Sequence record: MZ501087
Strand: one strand, 5' to 3'
Source of the DNA: Escherichia phage JulesPiccard
DNA: 47,731 nucleotides
Every line of letters begins with the position of its first letter. Within the stretch, counting starts at the first letter, position 1. Below, piece after piece: positions 609 through 46,448 of the stretch. A model generated the notes under the pieces. The model did not search any database. It was not told the origin of the DNA and saw only the letters and a list, made by a program, of their open reading frames with translations. The position numbers were made by a program, and so were the translations under genes.

Positions 609-2177
609 ATGGCTAATTTAGTATGGGAAGAAATGACCATTCAGGAAAAGATGGCCGTCAAGGCGATATCAGAACACAGCTTCGAGGGCTTTCTTCGTTG
701 CTGGTTCCAAATCACACAGGGCGAGCGATACATCCCTAACTGGCATCACAAATATCTATGCAGAATCATTGACGAGATTATTGCAGGTGAGCGCAAGGAC
801 ACCATCATCAACATAGCGCCGGGCAGCGGAAAGACAGAAATAGCTTCAATTCACTTTCCTGCCTACTCTATGGTTAAGCTGAAGAAGGTGCGGAACCTTA
901 ATATCTCCTTTGCCGACTCATTGGTTAAGCGTAACTCCAAGCGCGTACGTGACCTTATCAAATCTCAAGAATTTCAATCACTCTGGCCATGCAAGTTTGG
1001 TACGTGCAAAGACGATGAGCTTCAGGTTCTTGACGAGAGTGGCAAGGTTAGATTTGAGTCAATATCAAAGGCGGCTGGAGGTCAGATTACAGGCGCTCGA
1101 GGTGGCTATATAACAGAAACATACAGCGGGGCAGTTCTATTAGATGATTTCGACAAGCCGGCCGACATGCTATCTCAGGTCTACCGAACTAACAATCACG
1201 TAATGCTTAAGAACACGATTCGCTCACGTCGAGCTAGTTCTGTAAAAGGCAAGGCGACACCAATCATTTCGATACAGCAGCGATTGCACGTCAATGACTC
1301 AACCTGGTTCATGATGGAAGGAGGGATGGGTATTGATTTCGATCTGATTAAGATACCAGCATTAGTTACTGAGGATTACATCGATTCACTTCCTGACTGG
1401 ATTAAAGAGCAGTTTGCGGAAGACGTTTTGAGTGGTGAGTACATTGAGCGAGATGGGGTAAAGTACTATAGCTACTTCCCTAAAAAGGAATCCGTGCACG
1501 ACCTAGTTGCGATGTGGGATAGTGACCCGTACACTTTCCTTAGCCAGTATCAACAGGAACCTGTAGCTCTCGGCGGCAATCTGATTAACGTGGATTGGTT
1601 CCAGCGCCTTAGTGACACATTCAGACCTCCAGCTAAGTATGATTATCGATTCATCACGGCTGATACGGCGATGACAACTAAAAGCTATAGTGACTTCTCT
1701 GTGTTGCAACTTTGGGGCTATAAGGATGCCAGGATTTACCTTCTTGACCAACGCAGAGGCAAATGGGAGGCACCAGAGTTACAGGCTGAATTGCTTGAGT
1801 TTGAGAAGTCCGCAAGGGCCACCAGTCAGCAAAATGGAATTCTTCGAAAGATTATCGTCGAGAAGAAAGCATCTGGTATCGGTCTTATTCAATCAGCAAG
1901 TCGAGTTATGCGAACGCCAGTCGAGCCATACGTTCCGGATAACGACAAGCTGACCAGGGTAATGAGTGCGCTACCGCAGATTAAGGCCGGTAACGTCGTT
2001 CTTCCAGGGTCAGCGACATGGCTAAATGGTTTGCTTACGGAGATTGCATCTTTCACAGCAGACGACTCACACAAGCATGACGACCAAATTGACTGCCTAA
2101 CAATGGCAATCAACCTGGTACTTAACATTGCAGATGACCCTAAATCGCGGATGTTACGCCTTGCAGGAATTAAATAG
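609..2177 (+). CDS. terL: terminase large subunit
   Basis: 522 aa; N-terminal P-loop-like APGSGKTE; size and position before portal; C-terminal acidic nuclease-like region. Confidence 0.8.
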   Translation: MANLVWEEMTIQEKMAVKAISEHSFEGFLRCWFQITQGERYIPNWHHKYLCRIIDEIIAGERKDTIINIAPGSGKTEIASIHFPAYSMVKLKKVRNLNISFADSLVKRNSKRVRDLIKSQEFQSLWPCKFGTCKDDELQVLDESGKVRFESISKAAGGQITGARGGYITETYSGAVLLDDFDKPADMLSQVYRTNNHVMLKNTIRSRRASSVKGKATPIISIQQRLHVNDSTWFMMEGGMGIDFDLIKIPALVTEDYIDSLPDWIKEQFAEDVLSGEYIERDGVKYYSYFPKKESVHDLVAMWDSDPYTFLSQYQQEPVALGGNLINVDWFQRLSDTFRPPAKYDYRFITADTAMTTKSYSDFSVLQLWGYKDARIYLLDQRRGKWEAPELQAELLEFEKSARATSQQNGILRKIIVEKKASGIGLIQSASRVMRTPVEPYVPDNDKLTRVMSALPQIKAGNVVLPGSATWLNGLLTEIASFTADDSHKHDDQIDCLTMAINLVLNIADDPKSRMLRLAGIK

Positions 2178-2217
2178 CACGAATTGCCAAACACAAAAGC
2201 CACGGATGGCGTATAGT
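2175..2217 (+). promoter_or_regulatory. conserved promoter/operator element (TAGCA-N5-TGCCA ... TATAGT)
   Basis: family motif; TAG is terL stop. Confidence 0.55.
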
Positions 2218-2247
2218 CACTTCACACAAACGAGAGGAGTTAAACAA

Positions 2248-2625
2248 ATGACAAACACTTCAAAGGCTGTATATATTGGGAACAATGATGACAAGTATTG
2301 TGGATTCACTCCGGGAAATGAATACGACGTTTGCGTTCTTGATGATGGATTTTTGGGGGTTTACGATGATGATGATATTCACCGTTGCATTAAAAACGGA
2401 ACGTTACACGAGTTCAAGCTCGATTGTGAGGATGGTCATTTTGTAACTGAGACTGAGTGCGAAGTCATGCCGCCTATCGACAATAAAAAGCCAGAGCTTA
2501 GATATTACATAAATGGTCATGAGGTTGACATGGTTGAGTTCGGAAATGTGCGCTATACTGTAGAGCAGCTTAATGAGGATGGCGTAAAATGCGACACAAT
2601 CAAGTTCGAAGTAAAATTCGAGTAA
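2248..2625 (+). CDS. hypothetical protein, cargo gene (paralog of 14371..14745)
   Basis: ATG 2248 after RBS GAGAGGAG; preceded by promoter element at 2175 and followed by terminator; C-terminus IKFEVKFE matches IDFEVSFE of 14371..14745. Confidence 0.6.
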   Translation: MTNTSKAVYIGNNDDKYCGFTPGNEYDVCVLDDGFLGVYDDDDIHRCIKNGTLHEFKLDCEDGHFVTETECEVMPPIDNKKPELRYYINGHEVDMVEFGNVRYTVEQLNEDGVKCDTIKFEVKFE

Positions 2626-2646
2626 CCACAAAAGCTGTGATAAACT

Positions 2647-2669
2647 AGCCCCTGTTATGGGGCTTTTTA
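2647..2669 (+). terminator. intrinsic terminator
   Basis: hairpin GCCCC-TGTTAT-GGGGC then TTTTT. Confidence 0.7.
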
Positions 2670-2681
2670 TTGGAGAAAAAC

Positions 2682-3944
2682 ATGGTCAAGACAGACAGCT
2701 ACGCCAATATCTTTCTCGGCGGCAGTGATGGTAGTGAGATTTACGGGAGTTTGCAGAATCAGGCGCCCACAATTCTGGCCTCGCTTTATGCTGACAATGC
2801 TCTGGTGCGTCGAATTATCGACACAATACCGGAGACAGCATTAGCGGCAGGATTCCACATTGATGGTATTGATGATGAATCTGAATTCTGGTCTCACTGG
2901 GACGACCTGGAGCTAACAAAACACATCAATGAAGCCTGGTCATGGGCTAGATTGTTCGGTGGGTCTGCAATTGTTGCTATCGTTAAGGACAATAGGGCGC
3001 TAACAAGTCCGGTCAGAGAAGGTGCCGAGCTTGAAACGGTTCGCGTTTACGACCGCACACAAGTAAAAGTACAAACCCGAGAGGAGAACCCACGCAACTC
3101 GCGCTTTGGTAAGCCGCTAACCTATCGCATCACAACAAACGAAAGCGATATGTTCTATGATGTGCATTACACCCGCATTCACATCATTGACGGAGAGCGA
3201 GTCCCTAACGTAATGCGCCGTCAGAATGATGGATGGGGTAGAAGTGTTCTTTCTAGTGATATTCTTGACTCAATCAAGGATTACACGAACTGTGAACGAC
3301 TTGCCACGCAATTACTGAAGCGTAAGCAGCAGGCGGTCTGGAAGGCGAAAGGGCTTGCTGAGTTGTGTGATGACAGCGAAGGATTTGGCGCGGCTCGATT
3401 ACGACTTGCTCAGGTTGATAACAATAGTGGCGTGGGTCAGGCAATTGGCATTGACGCAGAATCTGAAGAGTACAGTGTTCTAAACTCTGATATCGGCGGG
3501 ATTGATGCGTTTCTGGATAAGAAGTTTGACCGAATCGTTGCTCTGAGCGGCATTCATGAAATCATCCTGAAGAACAAGAACGTTGGCGGTGTATCTTCAA
3601 GCCAGAATACGGCGCTTGAGACATTCCACAAGCTGGTTGACCGCAAGCGTAATGCTGAGCTTCTGCCTATTCTTGAGTTCTTAATCCCGTTCATTGTTAA
3701 TGTAGAAGAATGGTCAGTAGAGTTTAATCCTTTAGCGCAGGAGTCGAGCAAGGATAAAGCAGAGATTCTGGAGAAGAACGTAAACAGCATTGCGGCACTA
3801 ATTGCAGCTGGCGCTATGGATACTAACGAGGCTCGTGATACACTACGAACTATCGCACCAGAGATTAAGATTGGTGATGGAAATATCGAACCTGAAGAAC
3901 CATCTAAGGAAGTAATCGCGACGACAGAGGAATCTAATGAATGA
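2682..3944 (+). CDS. portal protein
   Basis: 420 aa, downstream of terL; ATG 2682 after GGAGAAAAAC; acidic C-terminus; size and position typical. Confidence 0.7.
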   Translation: MVKTDSYANIFLGGSDGSEIYGSLQNQAPTILASLYADNALVRRIIDTIPETALAAGFHIDGIDDESEFWSHWDDLELTKHINEAWSWARLFGGSAIVAIVKDNRALTSPVREGAELETVRVYDRTQVKVQTREENPRNSRFGKPLTYRITTNESDMFYDVHYTRIHIIDGERVPNVMRRQNDGWGRSVLSSDILDSIKDYTNCERLATQLLKRKQQAVWKAKGLAELCDDSEGFGAARLRLAQVDNNSGVGQAIGIDAESEEYSVLNSDIGGIDAFLDKKFDRIVALSGIHEIILKNKNVGGVSSSQNTALETFHKLVDRKRNAELLPILEFLIPFIVNVEEWSVEFNPLAQESSKDKAEILEKNVNSIAALIAAGAMDTNEARDTLRTIAPEIKIGDGNIEPEEPSKEVIATTEESNE

Positions 3945-3977
3945 TGAATTTGATGGATTTTAGTGAGGAGAATTGGG

Positions 3978-9905: not shown

Positions 9906-9948
9906 TAGCATTTTTTGATAAAGCATTAATTTAATCTTCCTGTATAGT
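9906..9948 (+). promoter_or_regulatory. conserved promoter/operator element
   Basis: TAGCATTTTTTGATAAA ... TATAGT ... CATCGAAACGAAATGAG leader. Confidence 0.55.
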
Positions 9949-9981
9949 TACCTCATCGAAACGAAATGAGAGATTAAAGAA

Positions 9982-10939: not shown

Positions 10940-13915
10940 ATGGCAACAAATGAATTAGCCGGAATCACACTAGCCGTAGATGTCTCGCAAGTGGACAGGG
11001 GCACTCAATCCCTGCAAAAGTTCAGACAGGCTAACCAACAAGCGGCCTCTGGGATTAGTGAGTTCGTTGATGCCGAGAAGGTTGCAAGAATCCAGGCGAG
11101 AGACACCGCTAGATCGCTAGCGGAACAGCAAGCGTCACTAGCTAAGTTGCAAACAGCGATTGATCCAACAGCTGCAAAGTTCCGAAAACTTCAGGAAGCT
11201 GCCGCCGCTTTGGACAAGGCTTTCGCCGCTGGAGTGGTTCCTGATGAGGAGTTTTTCCGCTTAGGCGAGGCACTTGAAACGCAGAATGCAAAGCTCGCTC
11301 GCTCTCGCGCAGCTCTCACTGAAGAGGGTAGGGCAGCGGCTCAAGCAGCAAAGGAGAAAGCGAAAGCACAGGCGGCGGCGGATAGATTTATTGCATCACT
11401 TGAACGCCAGGCTCAGGCTGCAACATTGACGCGCGAGGAGTATTTAAAGTTACAGGCAGCACAGCTTGGCGTTAGTTCTCAGGCCGCGCCTATTATTGAC
11501 AGAATCGCCGAAGCTTCAGAGAGGGCTAATGTTCAATTAGCGAACCAAAGCAAGGCCTTTCAGAAGTCAGGGCTAAGCGCCGGTCAATACAAGAATGCCA
11601 TTAGCCAGTTGCCAGCACAGATTACAGATATTGGAACATCACTTGCTGGCGGCATTCCGATTTGGCTTATTGCAATTCAACAGGGTGGGCAGATCAAGGA
11701 TGCATTTGGCGGTATTGGTAACACCTTTAGGTTTGCCCTTGCTGCGCTAAATCCTTTTAATGTTGCCGTTGGTGTTCTTGGTGGTGCCCTTGTAGCTCTC
11801 GGTGTTGGTGCGGCTCAGGCTGAAAGTGAATTTAGAGCATTAAACTCTGCGATTGCATTCTCAAACAACTCGACAATTACGTCAATCTCGCAAGTTAGGC
11901 AGTTAGTTAGCTCTGTTTCTGATGCCACTGGCGCCACCAGGGGCCTTGTGACTAGCATCGCAACAAGCCTTATTGAGCAAGGAAACCTTACGCTAACGCA
12001 GATTGATAAGATTACTAAATCAACCGCGAGATGGGCGCAGTTGACAGGTAGGGATGCGAAGGAGATTGCTGGTTACTATAACCAGATTGCAAGCGACCCA
12101 ATCCAGGGTTTAGTTGATTTGGATAAGCGATTTAACTTCCTCACGCAGGGGCAGTTGACGACAATCGAGAACCTGAGAAAGACAAGGGGAGAAGTTGAGG
12201 CTGTTACCGCTGCTATTGATATTTTCAGTAAGTCGCAGGAAGCCAACCTTAACGACATTGCAGCACAGTTAACTCCGCTTGAGTTAGCCTGGAATGATTT
12301 CAAAAAGTACATCTCTGATATCTGGGATGCAATTAGCCGTAGAACGGTTGGGGCGCTAAACCTGTTTGTTGACGTAATAGCTGGAACCATTGAGCAAATT
12401 AGGGTCTTCATTAACCAGGGCGATGTGCTGATTGGTGAATTCGTAATTAGTGCAACGCAGGCATTGCAGAACATTCCTGGTCTTGATGGTGTTGGTGATG
12501 ATGTTATCAAGAGTCAGCAGAAGATTATCGATGCCGCTAAGAAGCAAAACCTTGAGCTAGAAAAGTCTATCAGGGAGCGAGATGCCAGAATAAGAGAAGG
12601 GGAGCTTGGTTACGTTACTCGCAGAGAAAATCAGAACACCAATGAGCAATCAGGTACTGATGAGGAATTTGCAAAAAGGAAGAAGGCACTTCAGGATGAG
12701 CTTGACGCGATCAAGAAAAACAGGAAAGAAGAAAATGGTAGGGTTAAAGAGCAAAGAGACCTAACAATAGGTTATGAATCTGGCGTTCTGGCGCTTCAGG
12801 CTCAGCTAAAAGTTCTTCAGGAAAACAGGGATATCGGCGCAGTAATAAGTAACGAGCGCAAGCAGTACCTTCAGGAAGAGGCTAAATTCAGGATTCTTGA
12901 GCAGAGACAACTTGATGGCTCAATAACCAAAGAGCAGGCAAGGCTTCTCATTGAAAAGGATAAGGTTCTTGAATTGGCAAGGCAGAAGGCTGAGCTAGGT
13001 GATCAGATTGTTTTGCAGGAGCGAGCCAATAAGTTAGCTGAAGATAACAGGAAGAAGATTCTTCAGATTAACAATGAAGCAAACAACATTGATTTAGGCG
13101 CTGCATTGTCATCTCGCGAGCAGCAAAGACTTAAAGAGATTCAGGCTCTTGAGTCCAATCAGGTTAACGCTGGTGGTTCTCTTGAAGACGTAGATTTTCA
13201 GCAACTCCTCGAAGCAAGACGTAATTTTTATGCTCAGGAAGATGCGCTACGTGAAAACTGGCTTGCTGGCGTGAATCAATCCTTTGCTGACTGGGCTGAG
13301 AGCGCTACAGATGCCTTCTCAATTGCTGGAAGTTTAACCACCACCGTATTTGAGGGTATTACCGACCAGATTACCAACCTGGTAACAACTGGTGAGACTA
13401 ACTTCAGGGAATTTACCGTTAGCATTCTTAAGCAGATTGCTAAGATTGCAACCCAGCTTCTTATTGTCAAGGCTATTGAGTCCAGCTTAAGTAGCTTCGG
13501 TGGTACTGGTGGCGCTATTGGTTCAATTGCTTCTGGTTTAGGGTTCGCTAGCGGCGGCTACACTGGAGATGGTGGAAAATATCAGCCAGCAGGCACGGTT
13601 CATCGTGGAGAGTTTGTATTCACAAAAGAAGCGACAAGCCGAATTGGTGTTAAGAACCTTTATGCATTAATGAAAGGTTACGCAAACGGTGGTATTGTTG
13701 GTGGTACTTCTGGTTATGCTGGTGGCGGATTGGTTTCTGGTGGCCCTAATGTTGATGTTAGCGGTATAACTGTTAACGTGAACTCGGGGGTAGGTAGCGA
13801 CCCAGAGCAAGCTAAGGCATTGCAAAGTGGCGTCAAGGCAATCGTAGCGGAAGAGATTGCTCAGTCCTTCCAGCAGGGTGGGCGAGCTTATCAGTACCTT
13901 CGTGGATTCAACTAA
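10940..13915 (+). CDS. tail tape measure protein
   Basis: 991 aa, Ala/Gln-rich coiled coils, hydrophobic segments, Gly-rich C-terminus; RBS GGAGG. Confidence 0.85.
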   Translation: MATNELAGITLAVDVSQVDRGTQSLQKFRQANQQAASGISEFVDAEKVARIQARDTARSLAEQQASLAKLQTAIDPTAAKFRKLQEAAAALDKAFAAGVVPDEEFFRLGEALETQNAKLARSRAALTEEGRAAAQAAKEKAKAQAAADRFIASLERQAQAATLTREEYLKLQAAQLGVSSQAAPIIDRIAEASERANVQLANQSKAFQKSGLSAGQYKNAISQLPAQITDIGTSLAGGIPIWLIAIQQGGQIKDAFGGIGNTFRFALAALNPFNVAVGVLGGALVALGVGAAQAESEFRALNSAIAFSNNSTITSISQVRQLVSSVSDATGATRGLVTSIATSLIEQGNLTLTQIDKITKSTARWAQLTGRDAKEIAGYYNQIASDPIQGLVDLDKRFNFLTQGQLTTIENLRKTRGEVEAVTAAIDIFSKSQEANLNDIAAQLTPLELAWNDFKKYISDIWDAISRRTVGALNLFVDVIAGTIEQIRVFINQGDVLIGEFVISATQALQNIPGLDGVGDDVIKSQQKIIDAAKKQNLELEKSIRERDARIREGELGYVTRRENQNTNEQSGTDEEFAKRKKALQDELDAIKKNRKEENGRVKEQRDLTIGYESGVLALQAQLKVLQENRDIGAVISNERKQYLQEEAKFRILEQRQLDGSITKEQARLLIEKDKVLELARQKAELGDQIVLQERANKLAEDNRKKILQINNEANNIDLGAALSSREQQRLKEIQALESNQVNAGGSLEDVDFQQLLEARRNFYAQEDALRENWLAGVNQSFADWAESATDAFSIAGSLTTTVFEGITDQITNLVTTGETNFREFTVSILKQIAKIATQLLIVKAIESSLSSFGGTGGAIGSIASGLGFASGGYTGDGGKYQPAGTVHRGEFVFTKEATSRIGVKNLYALMKGYANGGIVGGTSGYAGGGLVSGGPNVDVSGITVNVNSGVGSDPEQAKALQSGVKAIVAEEIAQSFQQGGRAYQYLRGFN

Positions 13916-14297: not shown

Positions 14298-14340
14298 TAG
14301 CACTTTTTGCTAAACAGTATTGACATGGATGTCGTATATT
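14298..14340 (+). promoter_or_regulatory. conserved promoter/operator element
   Basis: TAGCACTTTTTGCTAAA, 22 bp, TATATT; leader ACAAAACGAGAGGAGG. Confidence 0.55.
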
Positions 14341-14370
14341 TAATTCAACAAAACGAGAGGAGGATATGAT

Positions 14371-14805: not shown

Positions 14806-15561
14806 ATGTTAAGTCCAAAGTTTGAAAATCAGTTGCAAAGCCTTTTCCCTGGCGAGATTGTAACTCTAATCCAGGTTGACGGCACGTCCTTCGGAAGTCT
14901 CGTTTACAATTTCCACAATGAGAACATTTCATACACACCTGAAGAAATCATGCTAGCCCAAATGAATGGTGAGCCACTACCAGAGAAAACCATCACCTTT
15001 CGTGGTGAAGAGTACGGCCCAAGACCTTTTGGAATCTCGGGCATAAATATGACCTCTGACGGCAAGGCAAACAAGGTTACGCTAACAGTATCAAACGTAG
15101 ACCAGCGCATTAGCGCATTGATTCGCACATACAACGGACTTGTTAAAGCTAAGGTTACCATCTGGATTACTACGCGAGATAACATCAATGAAGACGGAAG
15201 CATTGCTGATGGGGATTATCGCAGATTCGTTTACTTCATTGAGCGACCAAAGCAGGTTGACTACAAGACGGCATCATTTGAGCTAAGCAGCCCGATGGAT
15301 ATGGATGGTATTTACATTCCTGCTCGACTTGTTCAGTCTGTTTGCTATTTCGCCTCTAGGGGTTGGTATCGTAGCGGTAATGGTTGCGCTTATGCTGGAA
15401 ACAGATACTTCAACAAGGATGACGAGCCAGTATCAGACCCTTCATTAGACTTCTGCGCAGGAACTGTTAACAGTTGCAAGCTTAGATTTGGTGAGAATAA
15501 TCAGTTAGATTTCGGCGGTTGCGCTGCAGCAAGCCTTCAGGCTAAAGCTAATCAATCATAG
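14806..15561 (+). CDS. minor tail protein (lambda gpL-like)
   Basis: 251 aa with C-terminal Cys cluster (CYFA..CAYAG..CAG..C..CAAA) as in Fe-S binding gpL; position. Confidence 0.7.
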   Translation: MLSPKFENQLQSLFPGEIVTLIQVDGTSFGSLVYNFHNENISYTPEEIMLAQMNGEPLPEKTITFRGEEYGPRPFGISGINMTSDGKANKVTLTVSNVDQRISALIRTYNGLVKAKVTIWITTRDNINEDGSIADGDYRRFVYFIERPKQVDYKTASFELSSPMDMDGIYIPARLVQSVCYFASRGWYRSGNGCAYAGNRYFNKDDEPVSDPSLDFCAGTVNSCKLRFGENNQLDFGGCAAASLQAKANQS

Positions 15562-15606
15562 CACTTTTTGTTAAGAGGATGGTCCAGACTTGGGCTATCC
15601 TATAAT
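15559..15606 (+). promoter_or_regulatory. conserved promoter/operator element (upstream of HNH gene)
   Basis: TAGCACTTTTTGTTAAG ... TATAAT. Confidence 0.5.
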
Positions 15607-15628
15607 CTCTTATATTGGTGGTTAAAAT

Positions 15629-16111
15629 ATGAATTGGAATGATTACTTTAGATATGAAAGCGGCAACCTATACTGGTTGACAAAGAGAAAGGGAGTTAGA
15701 GCAAGTGGACTTGCCGGCTATTCAAGGAAGGACGGTTATGTTCAGGTTAGAGTTTCAGGAAAAGCCTTCCTTGCGCACAGAATTATATGGGAAATGCATA
15801 ATGGATTGATACCAGAAGGCATGGAGATAGATCACATAAACCACAACCCAGGAGACAATTCAATCGAAAATCTTAGGGTCGTCACATGCAAAGACAATCA
15901 AATGAATAGACCAATCAGGCTGTTGAGTAAAAGCGGCTTTAACGGTGTCACTTGGCACAAAAAATCAAAAAAATGGCAGGCAACGGCAAGAGTTAATGGA
16001 AAAACAAGATACTTCGGTCTGTTTGATGATCCAATCGATGCCTCAAAGGCAATGCGTTCATTTTTTATGGAAAATAATTTCCATCCAAATCATGGGGAAA
16101 AACGATGTTAA
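15629..16111 (+). CDS. HNH homing endonuclease (HNH plus AP2-like DNA-binding region)
   Basis: LAHRIIWEMHNGLIPEGMEIDHINHNPGDNSIENLRVVTCKDNQ (HNH motif); GVTWHKKSKKWQA..NGK..YFGLFD (AP2-like); own promoter element. Confidence 0.8.
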   Translation: MNWNDYFRYESGNLYWLTKRKGVRASGLAGYSRKDGYVQVRVSGKAFLAHRIIWEMHNGLIPEGMEIDHINHNPGDNSIENLRVVTCKDNQMNRPIRLLSKSGFNGVTWHKKSKKWQATARVNGKTRYFGLFDDPIDASKAMRSFFMENNFHPNHGEKRC

Positions 16112-22238: not shown

Positions 22239-22277
22239 TTTGTACCCCTCATTAAGTTGTTTCGTTTCGATGGAGTA

Positions 22278-22320
22278 ATAGTATCGCATCCTTGCGAGCA
22301 GTGTTTAGCAATTCGTGCTA
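22278..22320 (-). promoter_or_regulatory. conserved promoter/operator element (drives lipoprotein operon)
   Basis: minus strand TAGCACGAATTGCTAAAC-N-TACTAT-TACTCCATCGAAACGAAAC. Confidence 0.55.
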
Positions 22321-23948: not shown

Positions 23949-23991
23949 CAGCACAAATTGCTAAAGACAAAATTAAAAGGTGGGGTATGAT
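23949..23991 (+). promoter_or_regulatory. conserved promoter/operator element
   Basis: CAGCACAAATTGCTAAA ... TATGAT-TACCCCATCAAAAACGAACGAGG. Confidence 0.5.
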
Positions 23992-24020
23992 TACCCCATC
24001 AAAAACGAACGAGGTTAAAG

Positions 24021-27296: not shown

Positions 27297-27311
27297 TAGC
27301 ACAGATTGCTA
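27297..27311. promoter_or_regulatory. isolated operator palindrome TAGCA-CAGAT-TGCTA at tailspike 5' end
   Basis: perfect 5-bp inverted repeat with 5-bp spacer, 22 bp upstream of tailspike ATG on minus strand. Confidence 0.45.
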
Positions 27312-27337
27312 AGTTGGATTGTAGCAGCTTTCAGACA

Positions 27338-28283: not shown

Positions 28284-28302
28284 ATCAATCTATCTCTTAA
28301 CA

Positions 28303-28337
28303 AATAAAAAAAGGATGTACCGATTATGGCACATCCC
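28303..28337 (-). terminator. minus-strand hairpin plus T-run upstream of primase gene (possible attenuator)
   Basis: plus strand AAAAAAA-GGATGT-N-ACATCC. Confidence 0.4.
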
Positions 28338-28366
28338 ATTACTTACTCTTTAACTTTTCGTGCTAC

Positions 28367-28604: not shown

Positions 28605-29090
28605 TCATCCATGAGATATGTCTTTAGCTTTTCGTGCTGCTTCGTTAGCAGCCTTAATTTTACGCCATGATCGACATTCTGGTTTGGTTGCTAACTCGGA
28701 TTCAGTAACCACACGCAGCATGTGACGCTTTTTGCAACGCAGCGTAAGAGGCTTTCCATTGCCGTCGAATTGCAGATCTGGTCGGCAGAATGTAGCGCGA
28801 AAACCTTCTCCGGTTCGTTTGTAGTAGTTGTGAGATAGCTGAGCGCCACGTGCAGAGATCATGCCACGCTTAAACCACTCTTCTACAGCCTGCGGCGTCA
28901 CCTTTAACTGCTTTGCGATATTCGCCTTTGTGCCGAAGAAATCAAGGAGCATCTCAAGCCGCGCGCGTAGCCCAGCCCTTACCTCATCTTTCAAAACGTA
29001 GTAACCTGAAGGTCGTTTCCGCTGCTTTTTATCTTCAGTGCGGATGGTTCCGTTATTGCCGTTAGTGGTTCGCTTATCAACTGCATTCAT
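28605..29090 (-). CDS. putative DNA-binding protein (HTH)
   Basis: basic 161-aa protein with HTH-like IAKQLKVTPQAVEEWFKRG; first gene of a divergent operon; palindromic operator in its upstream region. Confidence 0.45.
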   Translation of the reverse strand: MNAVDKRTTNGNNGTIRTEDKKQRKRPSGYYVLKDEVRAGLRARLEMLLDFFGTKANIAKQLKVTPQAVEEWFKRGMISARGAQLSHNYYKRTGEGFRATFCRPDLQFDGNGKPLTLRCKKRHMLRVVTESELATKPECRSWRKIKAANEAARKAKDISHG

Positions 29091-29103: not shown

Positions 29104-29145
29104 TAGCATTTTTTGTTAAAAGTCATTCTGATTTGATGGTAGTAT
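29104..29145 (+). promoter_or_regulatory. conserved promoter/operator element in divergent region (HTH gene / helicase)
   Basis: TAGCATTTTTTGTTAAA ... TAGTAT. Confidence 0.5.
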
Positions 29146-29191
29146 TGTACTCAATTAAACGCTACAAGACAATTTTTATAGGAATTTAGAT

Positions 29192-31187: not shown

Positions 31188-31607
31188 ATGAATATTACAG
31201 ACAAAGTTGATTACATTGAGTTTTACCCGGGCCCGGTTAAGTCATGCCCCAAAGAGGACGACGAACAGATCTTTTGCTCTGATTGGGTTAAGTACCATTA
31301 TCCTCAGATTATCTATTGGCATACCGTTAATGAGGGGAAGAAATCAATGTGCGCAGCCAGAAAGGATGCAGCAAAAGGCCTCCTTAAAGGCGTATCAGAC
31401 TGCCTATTTCTAATACCTGAACCATTGCGAGGAAGGTATCCATTTGGCGCAATAGAGCTAAAGAGGGCAGGGAAAACGCAGGCTAGTCCAGTCAGCGAAG
31501 ATCAGAAGGCATTCCTGAAGAGCGTAAGAGAATCAGGCGGCTTCTCGGCTGTGGCCTACGGTCGTGAAGGTTTTCTTGCGGCGTTCAGAGAAATGATTTC
31601 AAAATAG
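31188..31607 (+). CDS. VRR-NUC domain nuclease
   Basis: GVSDCLFLIP..GAIELKR (D..ELK nuclease motif); 1-nt gap after helicase stop. Confidence 0.6.
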   Translation: MNITDKVDYIEFYPGPVKSCPKEDDEQIFCSDWVKYHYPQIIYWHTVNEGKKSMCAARKDAAKGLLKGVSDCLFLIPEPLRGRYPFGAIELKRAGKTQASPVSEDQKAFLKSVRESGGFSAVAYGREGFLAAFREMISK

Positions 31608-31647
31608 CACTAATTGCTAAAGAGATTTCGCAGGGATGCGATATAGT
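31605..31647 (+). promoter_or_regulatory. conserved promoter/operator element
   Basis: TAGCACTAATTGCTAAAG-N-TATAGT-TACTCCATCGAAACGAAAC. Confidence 0.55.
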
Positions 31648-31683
31648 TACTCCATCGAAACGAAACACAGAGAGAGAAACAAA

Positions 31684-32251: not shown

Positions 32252-32448
32252 TTGGCATCTGCGTAAAAACAAATGGAAGTTTTACTTTATTCGATGAGTA
32301 CGAGATTAATTTTGGCGATGATTTTTATTCAGACAAGATTGTAGTAATGAGCGATGATGGATGGAATTACATTATTGATTATCAAGGTGATGGCTACTAC
32401 GGGTGCGTAGACGCGAAAGGAAAAGAAGTTAGTTTCTTGGTTGAATAG
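32248..32448 (+). CDS. hypothetical protein
   Basis: 66-aa ORF, ATGA overlap; stop TAG forms part of promoter element at 32446. Confidence 0.4.
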   Translation: MIGICVKTNGSFTLFDEYEINFGDDFYSDKIVVMSDDGWNYIIDYQGDGYYGCVDAKGKEVSFLVE

Positions 32449-32488
32449 CATTTTTTGTTAAAACTAAAATCCAGGGATGGATTATATT
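32446..32488 (+). promoter_or_regulatory. conserved promoter/operator element
   Basis: TAGCATTTTTTGTTAAA ... TATATT. Confidence 0.5.
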
Positions 32489-32518
32489 AAACACATCAAC
32501 AACGGAGAGGATTAAGAG

Positions 32519-34358: not shown

Positions 34359-34401
34359 TAGCACTTTTTGCCTAAAGGATGCCGTAGAAATACGGCATAA
34401 T
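34359..34401 (+). promoter_or_regulatory. conserved promoter/operator element
   Basis: TAGCACTTTTTGCCTAAA ... CATAAT ... AAATCGAAACGAGATG. Confidence 0.5.
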
Positions 34402-34442
34402 CACCAAATCGAAACGAGATGAACTAAACCAGGAAACACAAA

Positions 34443-37842: not shown

Positions 37843-37872
37843 TACTTCTCTCCGTGTTGTTTCTGAGCGGCC

Positions 37873-37915
37873 ATTATATCAACGGCCGCCTATAATTCAT
37901 TATCAATTTGTGCTA
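37873..37915 (-). promoter_or_regulatory. conserved promoter/operator element (drives 527-aa gene)
   Basis: minus strand TAGCACAAATTGATAAT-N-TATAAT; leader CAGAAACAACACGGAGAG. Confidence 0.5.
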
Positions 37916-38626: not shown

Positions 38627-38652
38627 TTCACATCTCCCGTTTCAATGAGATG

Positions 38653-38695
38653 AATATACATGAAAAGCCCCGAAGGGATTTAGCGATTCGTGCTA
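38653..38695 (-). promoter_or_regulatory. conserved promoter/operator element (internal to minus operon)
   Basis: minus strand TAGCACGAATCGCTAAA-(hairpin CCCTTCGGGG)-TATATT-CATCTCATTGAAACGGGAGATG. Confidence 0.5.
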
Positions 38696-39462: not shown

Positions 39463-39489
39463 ATCCACCCCCTCGTTGTTGATGAGTTG

Positions 39490-39533
39490 ACTATACCCTC
39501 GCCAGACCATAACGTCATTAACAAAAAGTGCTA
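39490..39533 (-). promoter_or_regulatory. conserved promoter/operator element (heads minus operon)
   Basis: minus strand TAGCACTTTTTGTTAAT ... TATAGT ... CAACAACGAGGGGG. Confidence 0.5.
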
Positions 39534-39544
39534 TTCGTCAGATT

Positions 39545-39660
39545 TATGGATTGTTGCAGATATTGCAATGATTCACATGATTATTGCACATATAGCAATA
39601 TTGCTTCAGATGCAATGATGTTTTTGATTGTTGCGAAAAGTGAAATGAAGGGGTGAGTGA
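39545..39660. repeat. iteron-like cluster of TTGCA/TGCAA motifs
   Basis: about 7 ATTGCA/TGCAAT units at roughly helical spacing. Confidence 0.45.
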
Positions 39661-39744
39661 GCGAATGATAGATGGATGGACTACCATACAAGTTGATTTT
39701 GATTCTTCTTGAGCAACTTTGCGCATACGCGTTATAAAGGTTAT

Positions 39745-40060
39745 GCCATGTAGATGAAATCTCACTCCGCAGGAATCGTGTACGCCTATCACGCAGGATT
39801 ACGCAATGGTTACGTAATAATATCTATATATATCAACCTTTTAGTGTTATTATTATTATTATTATTATATACGTGTATATAGTGTAGATAGTGGATATTG
39901 GATATTGCGATAGTTTTCTATGATTTTTTCCTACACTTGTAGGAATGTGACTACACTGTAGGAATAAATAGGCATATATGGGCCACCCCTCCATAAAAAC
40001 TTATCTACAATCTGTACACGGCTTTACATTGAGCTATATCTGGGGTTGGTAGCTGAAAAG
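39745..40060. repeat. AT-rich control-region repeat, copy 2 (contains (TTA)6 at 39847..39864)
   Basis: same core and tail as copy 1; lies in 620-bp divergent intergenic region. Confidence 0.6.
39930..39962. promoter_or_regulatory. two adjacent palindromic sites CCTACACTTGTAGG and CTACACTGTAGG
   Basis: direct repeat of an inverted repeat, operator-like. Confidence 0.4.
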
Positions 40061-40094
40061 CGTAAATAAATTGAATTCAACCACAAATAACGCT

Positions 40095-40122
40095 TGATAA
40101 CATGTAACCTCGATGATATTAT
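40095..40122 (+). promoter_or_regulatory. sigma70-like promoter (TTGATA-N16-TATTAT)
   Basis: near-consensus hexamers upstream of 40163 gene. Confidence 0.45.
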
Positions 40123-40162
40123 GCACCCATATTAACGAAGGCAACAATCAGGAGTAATATCT

Positions 40163-41243: not shown

Positions 41244-41286
41244 TAGCAATAATTGCTAAACAATTGATCGGGTAGTCAGCTATGAT
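41244..41286 (+). promoter_or_regulatory. conserved promoter/operator element
   Basis: TAGCAATAATTGCTAAAC ... TATGAT-TACCCCATC. Confidence 0.55.
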
Positions 41287-41310
41287 TACCCCATCTACAA
41301 CAAAGAGGAA

Positions 41311-41520
41311 ATGAAGATGGAAAATATTCGTATTGAAGATGTTTACGTTGACCAGGCTGAGGTCAGCATCACAAAAAGAGATCGTGGTGCCGTTGTATCT
41401 CTGGATTTCGACCCTGATGAATACGGAGATTGTCAGACGCTGATGCAATACAGTCCAGACCAGGCGCGCAAGCTGGCGGCGGCATTAATTCTGGCGGCTG
41501 ATGAGGCAGAGAAGCAATGA
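41311..41520 (+). CDS. hypothetical small protein (paralog pair member)
   Basis: C-terminus ARKLAAALILAADEAEKQ resembles next gene. Confidence 0.45.
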   Translation: MKMENIRIEDVYVDQAEVSITKRDRGAVVSLDFDPDEYGDCQTLMQYSPDQARKLAAALILAADEAEKQ

Positions 41521-42038: not shown

Positions 42039-42077
42039 CCACGAATCGGCGGTTACGGATATGTCAATCGTCACATA

Positions 42078-42377
42078 TTGGCGGTTAGCGAATGCGAATC
42101 GGCACGCGATCGCAAGGTGGCTGTTTGCTATTGCGTTGGTGGCAATGAGTTCATCAATGGTTGCGAATGCGAGTATGAAGTTGATGAGCGCGAGGCGGGG
42201 TGTGAGCCGCGCATTATTCATATCGTACAAGATGCATTCGTCTCTGACTTAAAAGGTGATCACCGCTGGGAATCTGTTAAGTTTGGAAAGCTTAACATTG
42301 ATGGAAAAGATCTTGGCGATGCATACGCAATCATAAATCCTGATGGCGGCGTAGTGGCTCAGTTCTACATCAAATAG
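42078..42377 (+). CDS. Cys-rich hypothetical protein (no ATG; TTG start or readthrough product)
   Basis: open frame from 42039 with no Met; CYC..C.C motifs; stop TAG forms promoter element 42375. Confidence 0.35.
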   Translation: MAVSECESARDRKVAVCYCVGGNEFINGCECEYEVDEREAGCEPRIIHIVQDAFVSDLKGDHRWESVKFGKLNIDGKDLGDAYAIINPDGGVVAQFYIK

Positions 42378-42417
42378 CACGATTTGTTAAAAGGGGATTC
42401 ATCCTGACTGGTATAAT
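42375..42417 (+). promoter_or_regulatory. conserved promoter/operator element
   Basis: TAGCACGATTTGTTAAA-N22-TATAAT. Confidence 0.55.
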
Positions 42418-42450
42418 CCCCACATCAACCACACGAATGGAAGTTAACAA

Positions 42451-42990: not shown

Positions 42991-43110
42991 CGATATACGA
43001 ACATAAATTCAGTAGCAGGGGTATTGATATGCTCCTGCACTATGTAGACGAAAAATACGCAAATCTCATGCTTAAGACGCATGGTGGCACAATAACGAGG
43101 ATTAACATCA

Positions 43111-43743: not shown

Positions 43744-43744
43744 A

Positions 43745-43787
43745 TAGCACGAATCGCCAAAGCCGCTCCGGCGGGTTTTGTTATAGT
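43745..43787 (+). promoter_or_regulatory. conserved promoter/operator element with embedded GC hairpin
   Basis: TAGCACGAATCGCCAAAGCCGCTCCGGCGGGTTTTGTTATAGT. Confidence 0.5.
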
Positions 43788-43819
43788 TAGTTCACACCAA
43801 ACGAGAGGAAGTAGAAGAA

Positions 43820-44011: not shown

Positions 44012-44012
44012 G

Positions 44013-44231
44013 ATGATTACAATTAACCTGTCAGACAAGCAAGCAGCAGAACTTAAATCCATGTTATCAATCTTTGAGAAGCCAAATGACCGAGCAATTG
44101 CAAAAGAGGTTATCTCTCAGATCAACAACCAGCAATTCGACGTCAGTGACTTCGAGTCATCACGTCAATATGAAGCGATGAGTGTCAACGCTGCATACCT
44201 GGTTAACTGGGATAAGGCGACTAAGCAATGA
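44013..44231 (+). CDS. hypothetical small protein (tandem paralog 2)
   Basis: MITINLSDKQAAEL; RBS AAGGTGAG. Confidence 0.45.
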   Translation: MITINLSDKQAAELKSMLSIFEKPNDRAIAKEVISQINNQQFDVSDFESSRQYEAMSVNAAYLVNWDKATKQ

Positions 44232-44365
44232 TTTACGTTCACACTTACTACACTGCAAAGTTTAATAGCGTGAAGAATGTTAGTGTTCACGAAAGCTACG
44301 AGAGCGCAAAAGCTCAATGGTTGGTTCTCGGCGGTGATATTAATTCATATAGAGTCGATGAATAG
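44228..44365 (+). CDS. hypothetical protein (45 aa)
   Basis: ATGA overlap; stop TAG forms promoter element 44363. Confidence 0.3.
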   Translation: MIYVHTYYTAKFNSVKNVSVHESYESAKAQWLVLGGDINSYRVDE

Positions 44366-44405
44366 CAAGAATTGCTAAAACAGCATTGGGGTAATTTGTT
44401 ATAGT
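44363..44405 (+). promoter_or_regulatory. conserved promoter/operator element
   Basis: TAGCAAGAATTGCTAAAA ... TATAGT-TACCCCATAGAAACGAATGAGG. Confidence 0.55.
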
Positions 44406-44435
44406 TACCCCATAGAAACGAATGAGGAAGAAGAG

Positions 44436-44648
44436 ATGAAAATTGAAATTATCGACGTGGATTACCAGGTGGACCAGGAAATTCCTACTCTGCGCGACTG
44501 TGGTTTCCGGGTTGGAGATATAGTAGAGGTGATTGGTTACTACGATGATGGCGACATTTCAATCCCTGCAATCCGTGAGACTGAGTTCGCCAATATCGGA
44601 GATGAAATCAGTATTTGCGAGCATGAATACAGGGGGGTAGAGAAATGA
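44436..44648 (+). CDS. hypothetical protein
   Basis: RBS GAGGAAG; 70 aa acidic. Confidence 0.45.
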   Translation: MKIEIIDVDYQVDQEIPTLRDCGFRVGDIVEVIGYYDDGDISIPAIRETEFANIGDEISICEHEYRGVEK

Positions 44649-44827
44649 TTAAGTTCGAGCAAAGCGAACCTAAGCTACAGGCTAACCACTTCGATGGCTA
44701 CTCAACATTCATCATTGCCCAGGCGTACGGAATGCGTGAAGACCCACAGGTCCACACAATCCACTTAACCGAAGAGCAGGCTAGAGAGTTGGCTTACGAA
44801 ATTCTAGAGCAATTGAATAAGATTTAA
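44645..44827 (+). CDS. hypothetical protein
   Basis: 60 aa, ATGA overlap. Confidence 0.4.
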   Translation: MIKFEQSEPKLQANHFDGYSTFIIAQAYGMREDPQVHTIHLTEEQARELAYEILEQLNKI

Positions 44828-44876
44828 CGCGCCTAAAACGCACTATGACGAAAGATAATTTAAGTAAGGTGATTCT

Positions 44877-45162
44877 ATGATTAAAGCTGTTTTTGTTGCT
44901 GAGGATGACGATTATCTAGGCCTAAAGACACATGACGTGATCTATGTTGAACCATTAAAAAATGGTGATGGCTATATCTACACTGATAAATTTGGCGTGC
45001 GTCTTTTTATTGAGCGATGGGAAATTGAGGAGATTAGTGGTGAGTAACGAAAGCCCCGTAGAGTGGTGCAAGAGAATGCAGGACGAGGCCAAGACGAGCG
45101 AAGAGGCAATGGCTTACTACGAGCTTGCGAAAATGTGGATGGAGCGGGAGAAGAAGGAATGA
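44877..45162 (+). CDS. hypothetical protein
   Basis: 95-aa ORF (ATG 44877) extending the tracked 44962 ORF. Confidence 0.4.
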
Positions 45163-45302
45163 GCTTCACTGAATATGTTATCGCATGTGAGAGAATTGTG
45201 TTTGACATGAAAACCTTTCACTGGTTCATCATTAAGGATTTAATCAAGCCTTATAAGCAAGGCGTTACGCCAGAACAGTTTGTTAAGTCATTCTATAAAT
45301 AA
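45159..45302 (+). CDS. hypothetical protein (47 aa)
   Basis: ATGA overlap; MSFTEYVIACERIVF... Confidence 0.3.
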   Translation: MSFTEYVIACERIVFDMKTFHWFIIKDLIKPYKQGVTPEQFVKSFYK

Positions 45303-45328
45303 TCTTATCAGAAAGAGAGAGAAACAAA

Positions 45329-45526
45329 ATGTGGATCAACATTAAAGAAGAGATGCCTGGCAGCGAGGATGTTTTGGTTTATTGCTCAGACACAAGAGAG
45401 CAGATGGTTGGGTTCCACAAGGGGAGAGGTCTTTTTCAGTTCTTTTTCATGAATGGGGTGGAGGGAGTTTGCAAACCAACGCATTGGATGCCGCTACCAG
45501 AAGGTCCAGATAGCACGAATTGCTAA
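45329..45526 (+). CDS. hypothetical protein
   Basis: RBS AGAGAGAGAAAC; 65 aa. Confidence 0.45.
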   Translation: MWINIKEEMPGSEDVLVYCSDTREQMVGFHKGRGLFQFFFMNGVEGVCKPTHWMPLPEGPDSTNC

Positions 45527-45553
45527 ACACGCTCGCCACGGATGGCATATAAT
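45511..45553 (+). promoter_or_regulatory. conserved promoter/operator element
   Basis: TAGCACGAATTGCTAAAC-N-TATAAT-TACCCCATCAACACAACGAGAG. Confidence 0.55.
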
Positions 45554-45583
45554 TACCCCATCAACACAACGAGAGATTGAGAG

Positions 45584-45823
45584 ATGTTTGGATTAAATGA
45601 AGCGATGTTTAATGCTGTAAAGCGCCAGGCTAAAAAGCTCAACGATAAGTATGAGACACTAAGCAAACTGGACCGCAAGAATGACAAGCTAGTTGCTGGA
45701 GTTATAACTGAGATTTGGCAGCCCGTTTCTACGGTAATCAGCAGAGATCGCTTTGTGTGGGTAGCTGGTTACTTGCGAGGCCGGGTTGGTCACGACGAGA
45801 ATGGGAATAGCCTTTATGAGTAA
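45584..45823 (+). CDS. hypothetical protein
   Basis: RBS GAGAGATTGAGAG; promoter element 45511. Confidence 0.45.
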   Translation: MFGLNEAMFNAVKRQAKKLNDKYETLSKLDRKNDKLVAGVITEIWQPVSTVISRDRFVWVAGYLRGRVGHDENGNSLYE

Positions 45824-45923
45824 GTTTATTGATTGTGTTATTTACGCGTGGTGCTTGGCGCTGGCTTCAGCCTCGGTTATGTTAATAATTGCTGCGATTA
45901 TGATGATGGGTGGGTATGTATGA
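45816..45923 (+). CDS. possible 35-aa hydrophobic micro-protein
   Basis: MSKFIDCVIYAWCLALASASVMLIIAAIMMMGGYV; overlaps neighbours by start/stop. Confidence 0.25.
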   Translation: MSKFIDCVIYAWCLALASASVMLIIAAIMMMGGYV

Positions 45924-46108
45924 GTAATTGCAACAAGCACCACTATTACTACGCATACGAGTCGAAATTGGAGAAGTCTGACATTGATGGGATTAGATAT
46001 GGATGGGCTGACGCAACGGCGCCATGCATCTTCGTAGGAATGAAAATGGCATTCTACGTTTGCAGTAAGTGCCACAACATACTTATCACCGAGAGGCTGA
46101 GTAAATGA
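45920..46108 (+). CDS. small zinc-ribbon-like protein (paralog 1)
   Basis: CNKHHY...CSKCHN motif pair. Confidence 0.45.
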   Translation: MSNCNKHHYYYAYESKLEKSDIDGIRYGWADATAPCIFVGMKMAFYVCSKCHNILITERLSK

Positions 46109-46169
46109 GTGAACTAACAATCTGGTTTATCGCAGGGCTGGTTACTTGGGCTTACTTTATGGAGGCAGC

Positions 46170-46406
46170 ATGAGAACATTGAGGCAGATTTTAAACGGAT
46201 GCAAGAAGCATCATTACACTTACTTTCGTGACATTAAATGGTTCGAGGATGCTAATCGTTTAGATGGCTACAAGACAAAGTTAATATGCAAGAAGTGCCA
46301 CCATGTTGAGAACAGTAAGGTAGATATGATGATTTGCCGTAGCACACTCGACGAAGTTCATTATGCAAAGGCCAGAAGGCTCAAAAAACTAGTTGCCAGA
46401 CCGTAA
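46170..46406 (+). CDS. small zinc-ribbon-like protein (paralog 2)
   Basis: CKKHHY...CKKCHH motif pair; RBS GGAGG. Confidence 0.45.
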   Translation: MRTLRQILNGCKKHHYTYFRDIKWFEDANRLDGYKTKLICKKCHHVENSKVDMMICRSTLDEVHYAKARRLKKLVARP

Positions 46407-46448
46407 TTGTTAAAAAGAACTTGCACCACTGACCGGAATTATATAATA
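46401..46448 (+). promoter_or_regulatory. variant promoter element upstream of structured RNA/tRNA region
   Basis: TTGTTAAAA ... TATATAAT ... ACGTAGACAAACGAGG; left half-site degenerate. Confidence 0.35.

Follow-up and report, generated by a model that had tools for sequence, protein, structure and literature searches.

T1-like phages are among the most frequent coliphages and laboratory contaminants. To our knowledge, their transcription is essentially undescribed, and published annotations give a handful of σ70 promoters per genome. In this work, we describe a recurring intergenic element, built around the repeat TAGCAC-N3-TTGYTAAA, in the genome of Escherichia phage JulesPiccard (MZ501087), whose whole stretch of 47,731 nucleotides is referred to here as the window. 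The closest described counterpart comes from the 2024 re-annotation of phage TLS, in which a 21-nt direct repeat, aaATAGCACnnnTTGnTAAAA, was reported at 21 places (PMC11447400). These repeats are intergenic, follow the orientation of the genes, lie about 76 nt ahead of start codons and form A, T and G subgroups according to their middle triplet; similar repeats were stated for T1, Rtp and Rogue1 (PMC11447400). The authors of that work offered a stoperator, an enhancer-binding site and an UP-like element as options for the function of the repeat, annotated merely three σ70-like promoters, and detected no σ or polymerase gene (PMC11447400).

A second group of described elements is represented by the promoter-early stem-loop (PeSL) cassettes of T4-like phages (Arbiol 2010 PMC2839356; Comeau 2014 PMC4122927). 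Their terminator and promoter activities have been demonstrated and the positions of their stem-loops described (PMC2839356). One PeSL stem-loop terminates as well as rrnB T1, and in uninfected cells about 13,000 Miller units were measured for one PeSL promoter (PMC2839356; PMC4122927).

The window is the genome of a T1-like coliphage, complete or nearly so (47.7 kb), belonging to Drexlerviridae, Braunvirinae, the classification also given in the record of phage JeanPiccard. It shares 85–88% DNA identity with Veterinaerplatzvirus T145P1, ZL19 and IME253 and with the BASEL phages JeanPiccard and AugustePiccard. The repeat family is already published, and the window supplies further copies: 19 of them match the TLS consensus with 0–2 mismatches, and the T1 genome holds 21 matches. 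The sequence, the number of about 20 copies per genome, the intergenic position, the co-orientation with genes, the distance to the start codon and the middle-triplet subgroups are all the same as in TLS. What is new here is the fixed link between the repeat and a −10-like hexamer, the presence of PeSL-like hairpins, and the occurrence of intact modules in T4-like myoviruses. The TLS paper, in contrast, deals with the repeat alone, with no −10 at a fixed 37 bp, hairpins, start or leader, or T4-like copies.

The initial annotation of the window had proposed an element that recurs in both orientations before almost every operon and contains a TAGCA-N5-TGCTA palindrome, and the counts agree with it. 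The exact palindrome occurs 7 times in the window, while 0.09 occurrences are expected; for TAGCACNNNTTGNTAA with at most 2 mismatches, 29 occurrences compare with an expectation of 4.96, and none of 100 shuffles reached 29. The element is real, although true palindromes account for only about half of its copies and its middle triplet is restricted. An element is found at every position first listed except 46401, which had been taken as a variant member: its left half is absent and its hexamer is 7 bp out of register. A further module, absent from that list, is present at 28365 on the minus strand, located before the primase gene. Together with 18 of the listed sites, this gives 19 modules in the window, each co-oriented with the next gene.

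Each module is about 45–75 bp long and has the same order of parts, namely TAGCAC-N3-TTGYTAAA, a variable spacer of 20 bp, a −10-like hexamer at offset 37, a C-rich discriminator ending in CA, and a leader with a ribosome-binding site. In the 18 full modules, the hexamer lies at offset 37 in 14 cases, at 36, 38 and 42 in one case each, and is represented by a weak TACTAT at 37 in the last one; the start codon is located 69–88 nt past the first T of the repeat (median 73). The left half, TAGCAC, is near-invariant, the right half reads TTG(C/T)TA, and the middle triplet is TTT, GAA, TAA or AAA in almost all copies. To describe the family more broadly, 381 unique copies were pooled; they come from the window, T1 and JeanPiccard, and from IMG/VR contigs representing about 13 related genomes. 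In this set, the columns A−1, T0 to C5, T9 to G11 and T13 to A16 are each conserved at 91% or more. The upstream gene's TAG stop, said to be reused often by the left half-site, serves in this way in 5–6 copies; several others have instead a TAA or TGA stop that ends 1 nt short of the repeat.

A −10-like hexamer is present at offset 36–38 in 83% of the 381 repeats, exactly at 37 in 263 of them, whereas control offsets within 62 nt have such a hexamer in 3–6% of cases and offsets 80–82, near the start codons, in 13%. The hexamer follows the σ70 −10 signature, with T, A and the final T being the most conserved. The TG of an extended −10 at −15/−14 is found in 139/316 copies (44%) family-wide and in about 5/19 in the window. 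C48 (61%) and A49 (72%) are conserved where a start 7 nt past the hexamer is expected. The hexamer, its fixed distance to the repeat over hundreds of copies, the TG, frequent family-wide, and the CA at the expected start are all in line with the promoter reading proposed initially.

A −35 element was looked for as well. At 16–18 bp ahead of the −10 there is no −35-like hexamer, positions 14–19 being AAAAC-like, and the distance to TTGYTA is 22 bp; the 27.7–47.7 kb part of the window shows no enrichment of canonical σ70 sites (28 against 39.6 expected). On these grounds the earlier reading holds in both its parts, a promoter and a spacing that does not suit a standard −35/−10 arrangement, since TTGCTA and the hexamer, with a gap of 22 bp, cannot form a normal pair. 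This supports the modules as putative σ70-type promoters lacking a −35, and we regard it as very probable that they are promoter cassettes. TTGYTA as a true −35 was rejected: the spacer is 22 bp here and 32–33 bp in the modules of the T4-like phage Lw1 described below, and hairpin extrusion cannot restore 17 bp. A σ32 reading of CCCCAT was also rejected, as the motif lies about 28 bp from any CTTGAA-like box and is present in a minority of copies.

Another promoter class was considered because of its letters. The σ54 consensus is TGGCAC-N5-TTGCW, with GG and GC doublets 10 bp apart. The left and right parts of the repeat, TAGCAC-N3-TTGCT, resemble it in letters only, and under such a reading, or with an unrecognised phage sigma, the start would fall within the spacer. 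However, AG stands in place of the invariant GG (A1 is conserved at 98%), the blocks are 2 bp too close (N3 instead of N5), and the fixed −10 is left unexplained. Ten window proteins scanned against Pfam contained no σ or polymerase domain, in agreement with the absence of such a gene reported for TLS (PMC11447400). The spacing and the AG doublet led to the rejection of this reading, which is extremely improbable.

According to the explanation that we favour, host σ70 RNA polymerase would use each element as a compact promoter–terminator cassette. Its parts would be a 17–21-bp repeat, aaATAGCAC-N3-TTGYTAAAA, at −49 to −33; the 20-bp variable spacer; the −10 hexamer, often TGn-extended, at −12 to −7; the C-rich discriminator; a start at the A of CATC; and a 20–35-nt A-rich leader with a Shine-Dalgarno sequence. 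These coordinates follow from a predicted, unmapped start at position 49, which places the dyad centre (position 7) at −42. The conserved leader noticed at first would thus be divided: the portion from ATCGAAACGAG to the Shine-Dalgarno sequence would be a transcribed leader, while TACCCC would be the discriminator, upstream of the predicted start.

The repeat would stand in for the −35 and serve activation from upstream, with a dyad near −42 that corresponds to the position of a class II activator. Class II activators that act without a −35 include lambda cI at PRM, CRP or FNR at −41.5, and Mu Mor and C at −43.5. Such promoters share with the present modules a good −10 that lacks a −35, together with a dyad site near −42 (here relative to the predicted start) that overlaps the −35 region. 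Unlike in those systems, the site here is asymmetric and varies far less than operators usually do, a 48-kb genome has about 20 promoters of this type, and the activator is only a candidate. T4 middle promoters, which depend on a MotA box and AsiA-remodelled σ70, also replace the −35 with a phage box containing TTGCT before a σ70 −10; however, a MotA box has its centre at −30 and is 11–13 bp distant from the −10, whereas here the box ends 20–22 bp away, and no MotA or AsiA homologues were seen. We consider it likely that the repeat is a protein-binding upstream element. The T4-like phage Lw1, in which the repeat lies 37/38 or 47/48 bp ahead of the hexamer, that is, one helical turn apart, fits an upstream element that acts from one face of the helix.

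A bound protein need not activate. The repeat could be a 'stoperator'-type roadblock or operator, at which a phage repressor stops incoming polymerase or shuts the adjacent promoter. The repeats follow the direction of transcription in short intergenic gaps (PMC11447400), and some of them lie downstream of putative starts or right before a ribosome-binding site, as at the tail-fibre gene, the regulator gene discussed below and T1 terS; moreover, the best fold matches of the candidate binding protein are Cro proteins, i.e., repressors. The stoperators of mycobacteriophage L5 are similar in that a short asymmetric site recurs many times in narrow gaps between genes, always in the same orientation with respect to transcription. 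They are, however, repressor sites that silence a prophage and have no fixed −10 register, whereas the repeat keeps a strict 37-bp register with a −10 that lacks a −35, which calls for an activating element rather than a roadblock. In addition, the structural half of the window has its best DNA matches in lytic T1-like phages, in which packaging, head and tail genes alone are annotated, and insulation would already be provided by the hairpins. A purely blocking role is, in our opinion, improbable.

The hairpins form the second characteristic feature of the cassettes. Between the end of the repeat and 16 nt past the hexamer, the mean folding energy is −9.4 kcal/mol, compared with −4.5 kcal/mol in shuffles; folds at −6 kcal/mol or better occur in 71% of copies, compared with 24% for shuffles and 5% for downstream coding sequence. 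Two main registers are present, a spacer hairpin with its axis at 28.5–29.5 and a −10-flanking hairpin with its axis at 36.5–37.5, the arms of the latter being, for example, GGGGTA…TACCCC, or AAGGCCA…TGGCCTT in T1. Stems of at least 6 bp exceed those of shuffles in register 73 (56 against 3), register 57 (21 against 3) and register 59 (16 against 2). The sequence of the stems varies among copies while pairing is kept, with several pair types per position, and module 37915 differs from its JeanPiccard orthologue by a compensatory C-G to A-T double change. The sense-strand fold is more stable in 210 copies and the antisense fold in 62, which suggests that the relevant molecule is RNA read through from the upstream gene. 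In some copies, the hairpin has the form of an overt terminator whose T-tract is also the extended −10, as at 43745, at 38695 and in T1 copies annotated as terminators; U-tracts accompany the hairpins at 43745, 38695 and 28365, and in the last of these the −10 lies within the terminator loop.

These variable hairpins would act on upstream read-through RNA as terminators, attenuators or 3'-end stabilisers. By doing so, each cassette would insulate one expression unit from the next, as in PeSL cassettes. The two kinds of elements have much in common: both are intergenic cassettes of about 70–100 bp in tens of copies that end in a Shine-Dalgarno sequence and a start codon, both combine a σ70-type promoter with a G-run/C-run stem-loop, and both are associated with small accessory open reading frames (ORFs); cassette exchange, with which PeSL elements are associated, may apply here as well. 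The stem-loop of a PeSL lies between the upstream box and the −10 or overlaps the −10, and the two hairpin registers described above correspond to these positions. By contrast, PeSL elements have both a −35 and a −10, while only the −10 is present here; those of RB49 and phi1 have a normal −35 and an A/T-rich upstream region, whereas in the present modules TAGCAC…TTGYTAAA takes the place of the −35 and lies 5 bp further upstream. Unlike PeSL elements, the cassettes in the window also head core replication and structural operons.

The stability of the sense folds also bears on an RNA-level role, in which a UAGCA/UGYUA hairpin and a second hairpin with a conserved loop would serve as a processing, antitermination or translation signal of polycistronic transcripts and the resemblance to a −10 would be secondary. 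At position 12, a C-to-T change keeps G·U pairing (195 C, 105 T, 16 A or G), and repeats are found where the tail-fibre mRNA is predicted to begin and 20 nt ahead of the ribosome-binding site of terS. Such a role does not account for the position-specific σ70 −10 pattern, the TG at −15/−14 and the CA start signal, all in a fixed register. Besides, with the predicted start, the promoter's own transcript holds neither the repeat nor the hairpin, and the stem formed by the repeat is merely 5 bp. In an Rfam search of the window, a tRNA-Arg was the sole match, and the repeat or cassette fitted no family at gathering score. An RNA signal as the primary function thus seems very improbable.

If the repeat is bound by a protein, the question is which one. 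Two 5-bp half-sites 10 bp apart around an A/T-tract would suit the geometry of a dimeric helix-turn-helix (HTH) protein, and the repeat core, as a duplex for a candidate reader, is TAGCACGAATTGCTAAA. Dependence on a dimeric phage factor, proposed from the beginning, is plausible but unproven. The first choice would be the 161-residue protein encoded at 28605–29090, which had already been named as a candidate and turned out to be a Cro-like HTH protein conserved family-wide. Pfam gives a P22_Cro-like HTH, with P22_Cro and YdaS as the only matches, both below their cut-offs; no Mor-family domain was found in it by the Pfam scan, which is a further difference from Mu Mor and C. The AlphaFold2 model has a mean predicted local distance difference test (pLDDT) score of 85, with low confidence for the N-terminal 30 residues; the best Foldseek matches of the central domain, Xfaso1 and N15 Cro, are weak, and a sequence search against PDB gave no matches. 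Homologues are present in 829 phage records and 109 protein clusters, and nearly all of those listed are siphovirus-sized (about 37–53 kb).

At repeats situated past a start, as in its own leader and at the tail-fibre gene, this protein would act as a repressor. Repeat 29104, on the opposite strand, is located directly upstream of the regulator's ribosome-binding site, and both this repeat and the family-conserved one at the predicted start of the tail-fibre gene speak for this protein. So does the decay of the repeat in 3/8 Lw1 modules and in Pantoea phage Phynn, both T4-like and without the regulator. Covariation between repeat and regulator was also considered in Vibrio phage Vc1, where it was uninformative because the repeat is essentially identical there. 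Taken alone, the assignment of the reader to this phage protein is tentative, and we see it as possible rather than probable. For the explanation as a whole, comprising a promoter–terminator cassette, an activating repeat, a Cro-like reader and insulating hairpins, we are moderately confident.

Several observations weigh against this explanation. C5, A−1 and A15–17 have no dyad partners, so that the conserved site is asymmetric. Most hairpins that embrace the −10 have no U-tract, and the hairpins of modules that follow a co-directional ORF are not significantly different in strength from those of the other modules (p = 0.22). The repeat is near-invariant family-wide, yet variation is seen in the putative recognition helix of the regulator; the most conserved parts of the protein lie outside the HTH, in the N-terminal DKRTxNGNNGTxR…RKRP and the C-terminal FCRPDLxFDxNGKPL…C. 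No homologue of the regulator is detectable in Lw1 (best tblastn E = 1.1) despite at least 5 intact repeats. Repeat-type promoters stand ahead of nearly all operons, early-looking ones included, and few conventional promoters are thus left to make the activator first. Finally, a literature search located no start-site mapping, transcriptome or binding data for any T1-like phage.

The variable helix, the intact Lw1 repeats and the near-universal use of the repeat make a host-supplied reader a serious rival. The C-terminal domain of the polymerase α subunit could contact the central T/A-tract as a proximal UP element, with additional contacts to the flanks, or an abundant regulator such as Lrp could bind; the promoters would then fire on DNA entry and work in any enterobacterial phage. 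The near-confinement of the listed regulator homologues to siphovirus-sized contigs, set beside intact modules in Lw1 and related ones in Phynn and in Klebsiella, Cronobacter and Serratia myoviruses, agrees with this possibility. The repeat remains invariant over hosts from Escherichia to Vibrio, while the regulator falls to 50% identity. A T5 or AATT centre is present at −43 to −39, and in uninfected E. coli the activity of PeSL promoters is very high (PMC2839356). As for Lrp, its E. coli consensus obtained by systematic evolution of ligands by exponential enrichment, yAGhAwATTwTdCTr (as quoted in PMC5554404), is matched at 11–14/15 positions by 283/316 repeats, with a background probability of 1e-4 for 13 or more; of the ten best-scoring 15-mers of the window, eight are repeats, and 9906, 14298, 29104, 32446 and others reach 13/15. 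This sequence match may be treated as a lead. The Lrp consensus is loose, however, and leaves C5 and the TAACA right half (one third of copies) unexplained, UP elements are A/T-rich and degenerate, in contrast to the invariant TAGCAC and TTG, and nothing connecting lrp to T1-like phages was found in the literature. Furthermore, in several T4-like modules the repeat has decayed while the terminator, −10 and leader are better kept, although an element read by the host should stay useful. All this considered, a reader supplied by the host appears unlikely to us.

The occurrence of modules outside the family became apparent when the IMG/VR scan also matched contigs of 176–178 kb, one of which is Escherichia phage Lw1 (KC801932.2), a T4-like Pseudotevenvirus. 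Its intact repeats, at least 5 in number, lie in four genome regions (10294−, 10910−, 56167+, 91966− and 92338−). In three more modules (9967−, 76604− and 93988−), the left half or the whole repeat is lost, and the terminator, the TTTGnTATATT box and the CATCGAAACGA leader are kept. Phynn carries a related module with a degenerate repeat, and the matches in Klebsiella, Cronobacter and Serratia myoviruses were obtained by BLAST with the Lw1 modules. A DUF5417 cassette gene is common to Lw1 and to Klebsiella T1-like phages (Drexlerviridae). In JeanPiccard, two annotated homing-endonuclease genes (576–1052 and 13303–13779) each have their own repeat module; the ORF at 15629–16111 of the window occupies another genome place than these endonucleases, and none lies between terS and terL in the window. 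Judging by sequence, this placement is consistent with mobile cassettes. A more far-reaching proposal is that the repeat and the extended −10 form a −35-independent grammar read by the host, through α/σ contacts of the polymerase or an Lrp-type regulator, and mobile, in the form of promoter–terminator cassettes, between two unrelated families of virulent phages, T1-like siphoviruses and T4-like myoviruses of the RB43/KP15 type; we consider it quite unlikely.

Table 1. Repeat modules and other features of the window. Coordinates on the minus strand are given in the direction of the module where they concern the repeat or the hexamer; offsets are counted from the first T of the repeat.
Feature	Coordinates	Strand	Repeat	Hairpin	−10 hexamer	Start codon	Remarks
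Module	2175–2247	+	2175–2191	spacer, GCCAcggaTGGC	TATAGT 2212–2217	2248	followed by leader
Module	9906–9981	+	9906–9922 (TAGCAT…TTGATA)	none	TATAGT 9943–9948	9982	T-run ends directly upstream of repeat
Module	14298–14370	+	14298–14314	spacer, GACATggATGTC	TATATT 14335–14340	14371	
Variant module	15559–15628	+	15559–15575	long, GGATGGTCCAgactTGGGCTATCC	TATAAT 15601–15606, offset 42		precedes 160-aa ORF at 15629; MNWND start like annotated JeanPiccard homing-endonuclease genes
Module	22239–22320	−	22320–22304, perfect palindrome	CGCAaggaTGCG	weak TACTAT, offset 37	22238	
Module	23949–24020	+	23949–23965 (CAGCAC variant)	GGTGGGGTA/TACCCCATC around −10	TATGAT 23986–23991	24021	216-aa ORF, matches annotated recombination protein of JeanPiccard
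Repeat without −10	27297–27313	+	27297–27313			 	points away from adjoining gene; between primase terminator and lateral tail-fibre start (27274, minus); just downstream of minus-strand TACAAT; conserved in T1, JeanPiccard and other relatives
Module, absent from first list	28284–28365	−	28365–28349, TAGCACGAAAAGTTAAA	GGGATGTGC/GTACATCC with −10 in loop, then T7 (terminator-like)	extended TGcCATAAT, offset 37	28283	primase; CA at 48–49
Module	29104–29191	+	29104–29120	no stable hairpin	weak TAGTAT, offset 36	29192	helicase; overlaps minus-strand TTGTCT-17-TACAAT promoter-like site of regulator gene
Module	31605–31683	+	31605–31621	CGCAgggaTGCG	TATAGT 31642–31647	31684	
Module	32446–32518	+	32446–32462	TCCAgggaTGGA	TATATT 32483–32488	32519	
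Module	34359–34442	+	34359–34375 (TTGCCT variant)	GCCGTAgaaaTACGGC	CATAAT 34396–34401	34443	
Module	37843–37915	−	37915–37899	GGCGGCC/GGCCGC around −10	TATAAT 37878–37873	37842	DUF3987 protein
Module	38627–38695	−	38695–38679	spacer, terminator-like, CCCCttcgGGGG+CTTTTC	TATATT 38658–38653	38626	
Module	39463–39533	−	39533–39517		TATAGT, offset 38	39462	first of leftward operon; adjoins 600-bp non-coding region
Module	41244–41316	+	41244–41260, perfect palindrome	GGGTAGTCAG/…TACCC around −10	TATGAT 41281–41286	41317	
Module	42375–42450	+	42375–42391	GGGGATT/AATCCCC around −10	TATAAT 42412–42417	42451	polynucleotide-kinase-like gene
Module	43745–43819	+	43745–43761	terminator-like, GCCGCtccgGCGGG+TTTTGT	extended TGtTATAGT 43782–43787	43820	hairpin T-tract runs into extended −10
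Module	44363–44435	+	44363–44379, perfect palindrome	GGGGTAA/TTACCCC around −10	TTTGtTATAGT	44436	
Module	45511–45583	+	45511–45527, perfect palindrome	GCCAcggaTGGC	TATAAT 45548–45553	45584	TAA of repeat is stop of ORF 45329–45526
No member	46401–46448	+	right half alone (TAATTGTTAAAAA)		7 bp off register		readable as conventional TTGCAC-15-TATAAT promoter
Candidate reader, 161-aa Cro-like HTH protein	28605–29090	−					PHROG 2856 'transcriptional regulator'
tRNA-Arg (anticodon TCT)	46817–46894						as in related phages

Apart from the modules, the window contains few good conventional σ70 matches, among them TTGATA-17-TATTAT with TG at 40094–40122, before the DUF7174 gene, and TTGACA-17-TAGTAT at 47352–47380, before the ORF at 47422. 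These two are candidates for repeat-independent transcription. The 600-bp non-coding region at 39540–40160 separates the leftward operon headed by repeat 39533 (minus) from the rightward DUF7174 gene. Within this region are a cluster of three palindromes belonging to a second type, TTGCA-N5-(T/A)GCAA (39554, 39584 and 39601), a run of (ATT)n close to 39850, 24–28-nt direct repeats and a number of inverted repeats; the region could be an origin or an early control region. In T1, a similar TTGCATTCTAAGCAA adjoins the end-proximal repeat. Four T1 repeats occur in odd contexts (8363, 15070−, 18834− and 48735−), all conserved in relatives: one without a −10 right before the terS ribosome-binding site, two antisense within the late operon, and one without a −10 at the genome end. 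A short hydrophobic ORF (MKGLIKLFMMYYLLTSVSLCVFMLVVKLWLI…) at 528–600 of the window separates the small terminase gene from the large one, at the place where JeanPiccard has an endonuclease cassette.

With the repeat as the putative upstream half of about 20 promoters per genome that lack a −35, a published direct repeat would gain a concrete promoter model for the whole family, and the question narrows to what reads TAGCAC-N3-TTGYTAAA. Cassettes of about 75 bp that would combine an insulator hairpin, a promoter and a leader are also of practical interest for phage engineering. If the host-read grammar were true and Lrp were the reader, the transcription of a whole phage family would be tied to the feast/famine state of the host. 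The occurrence of the modules in T4-like phages points to regulatory cassettes exchanged between phage families.

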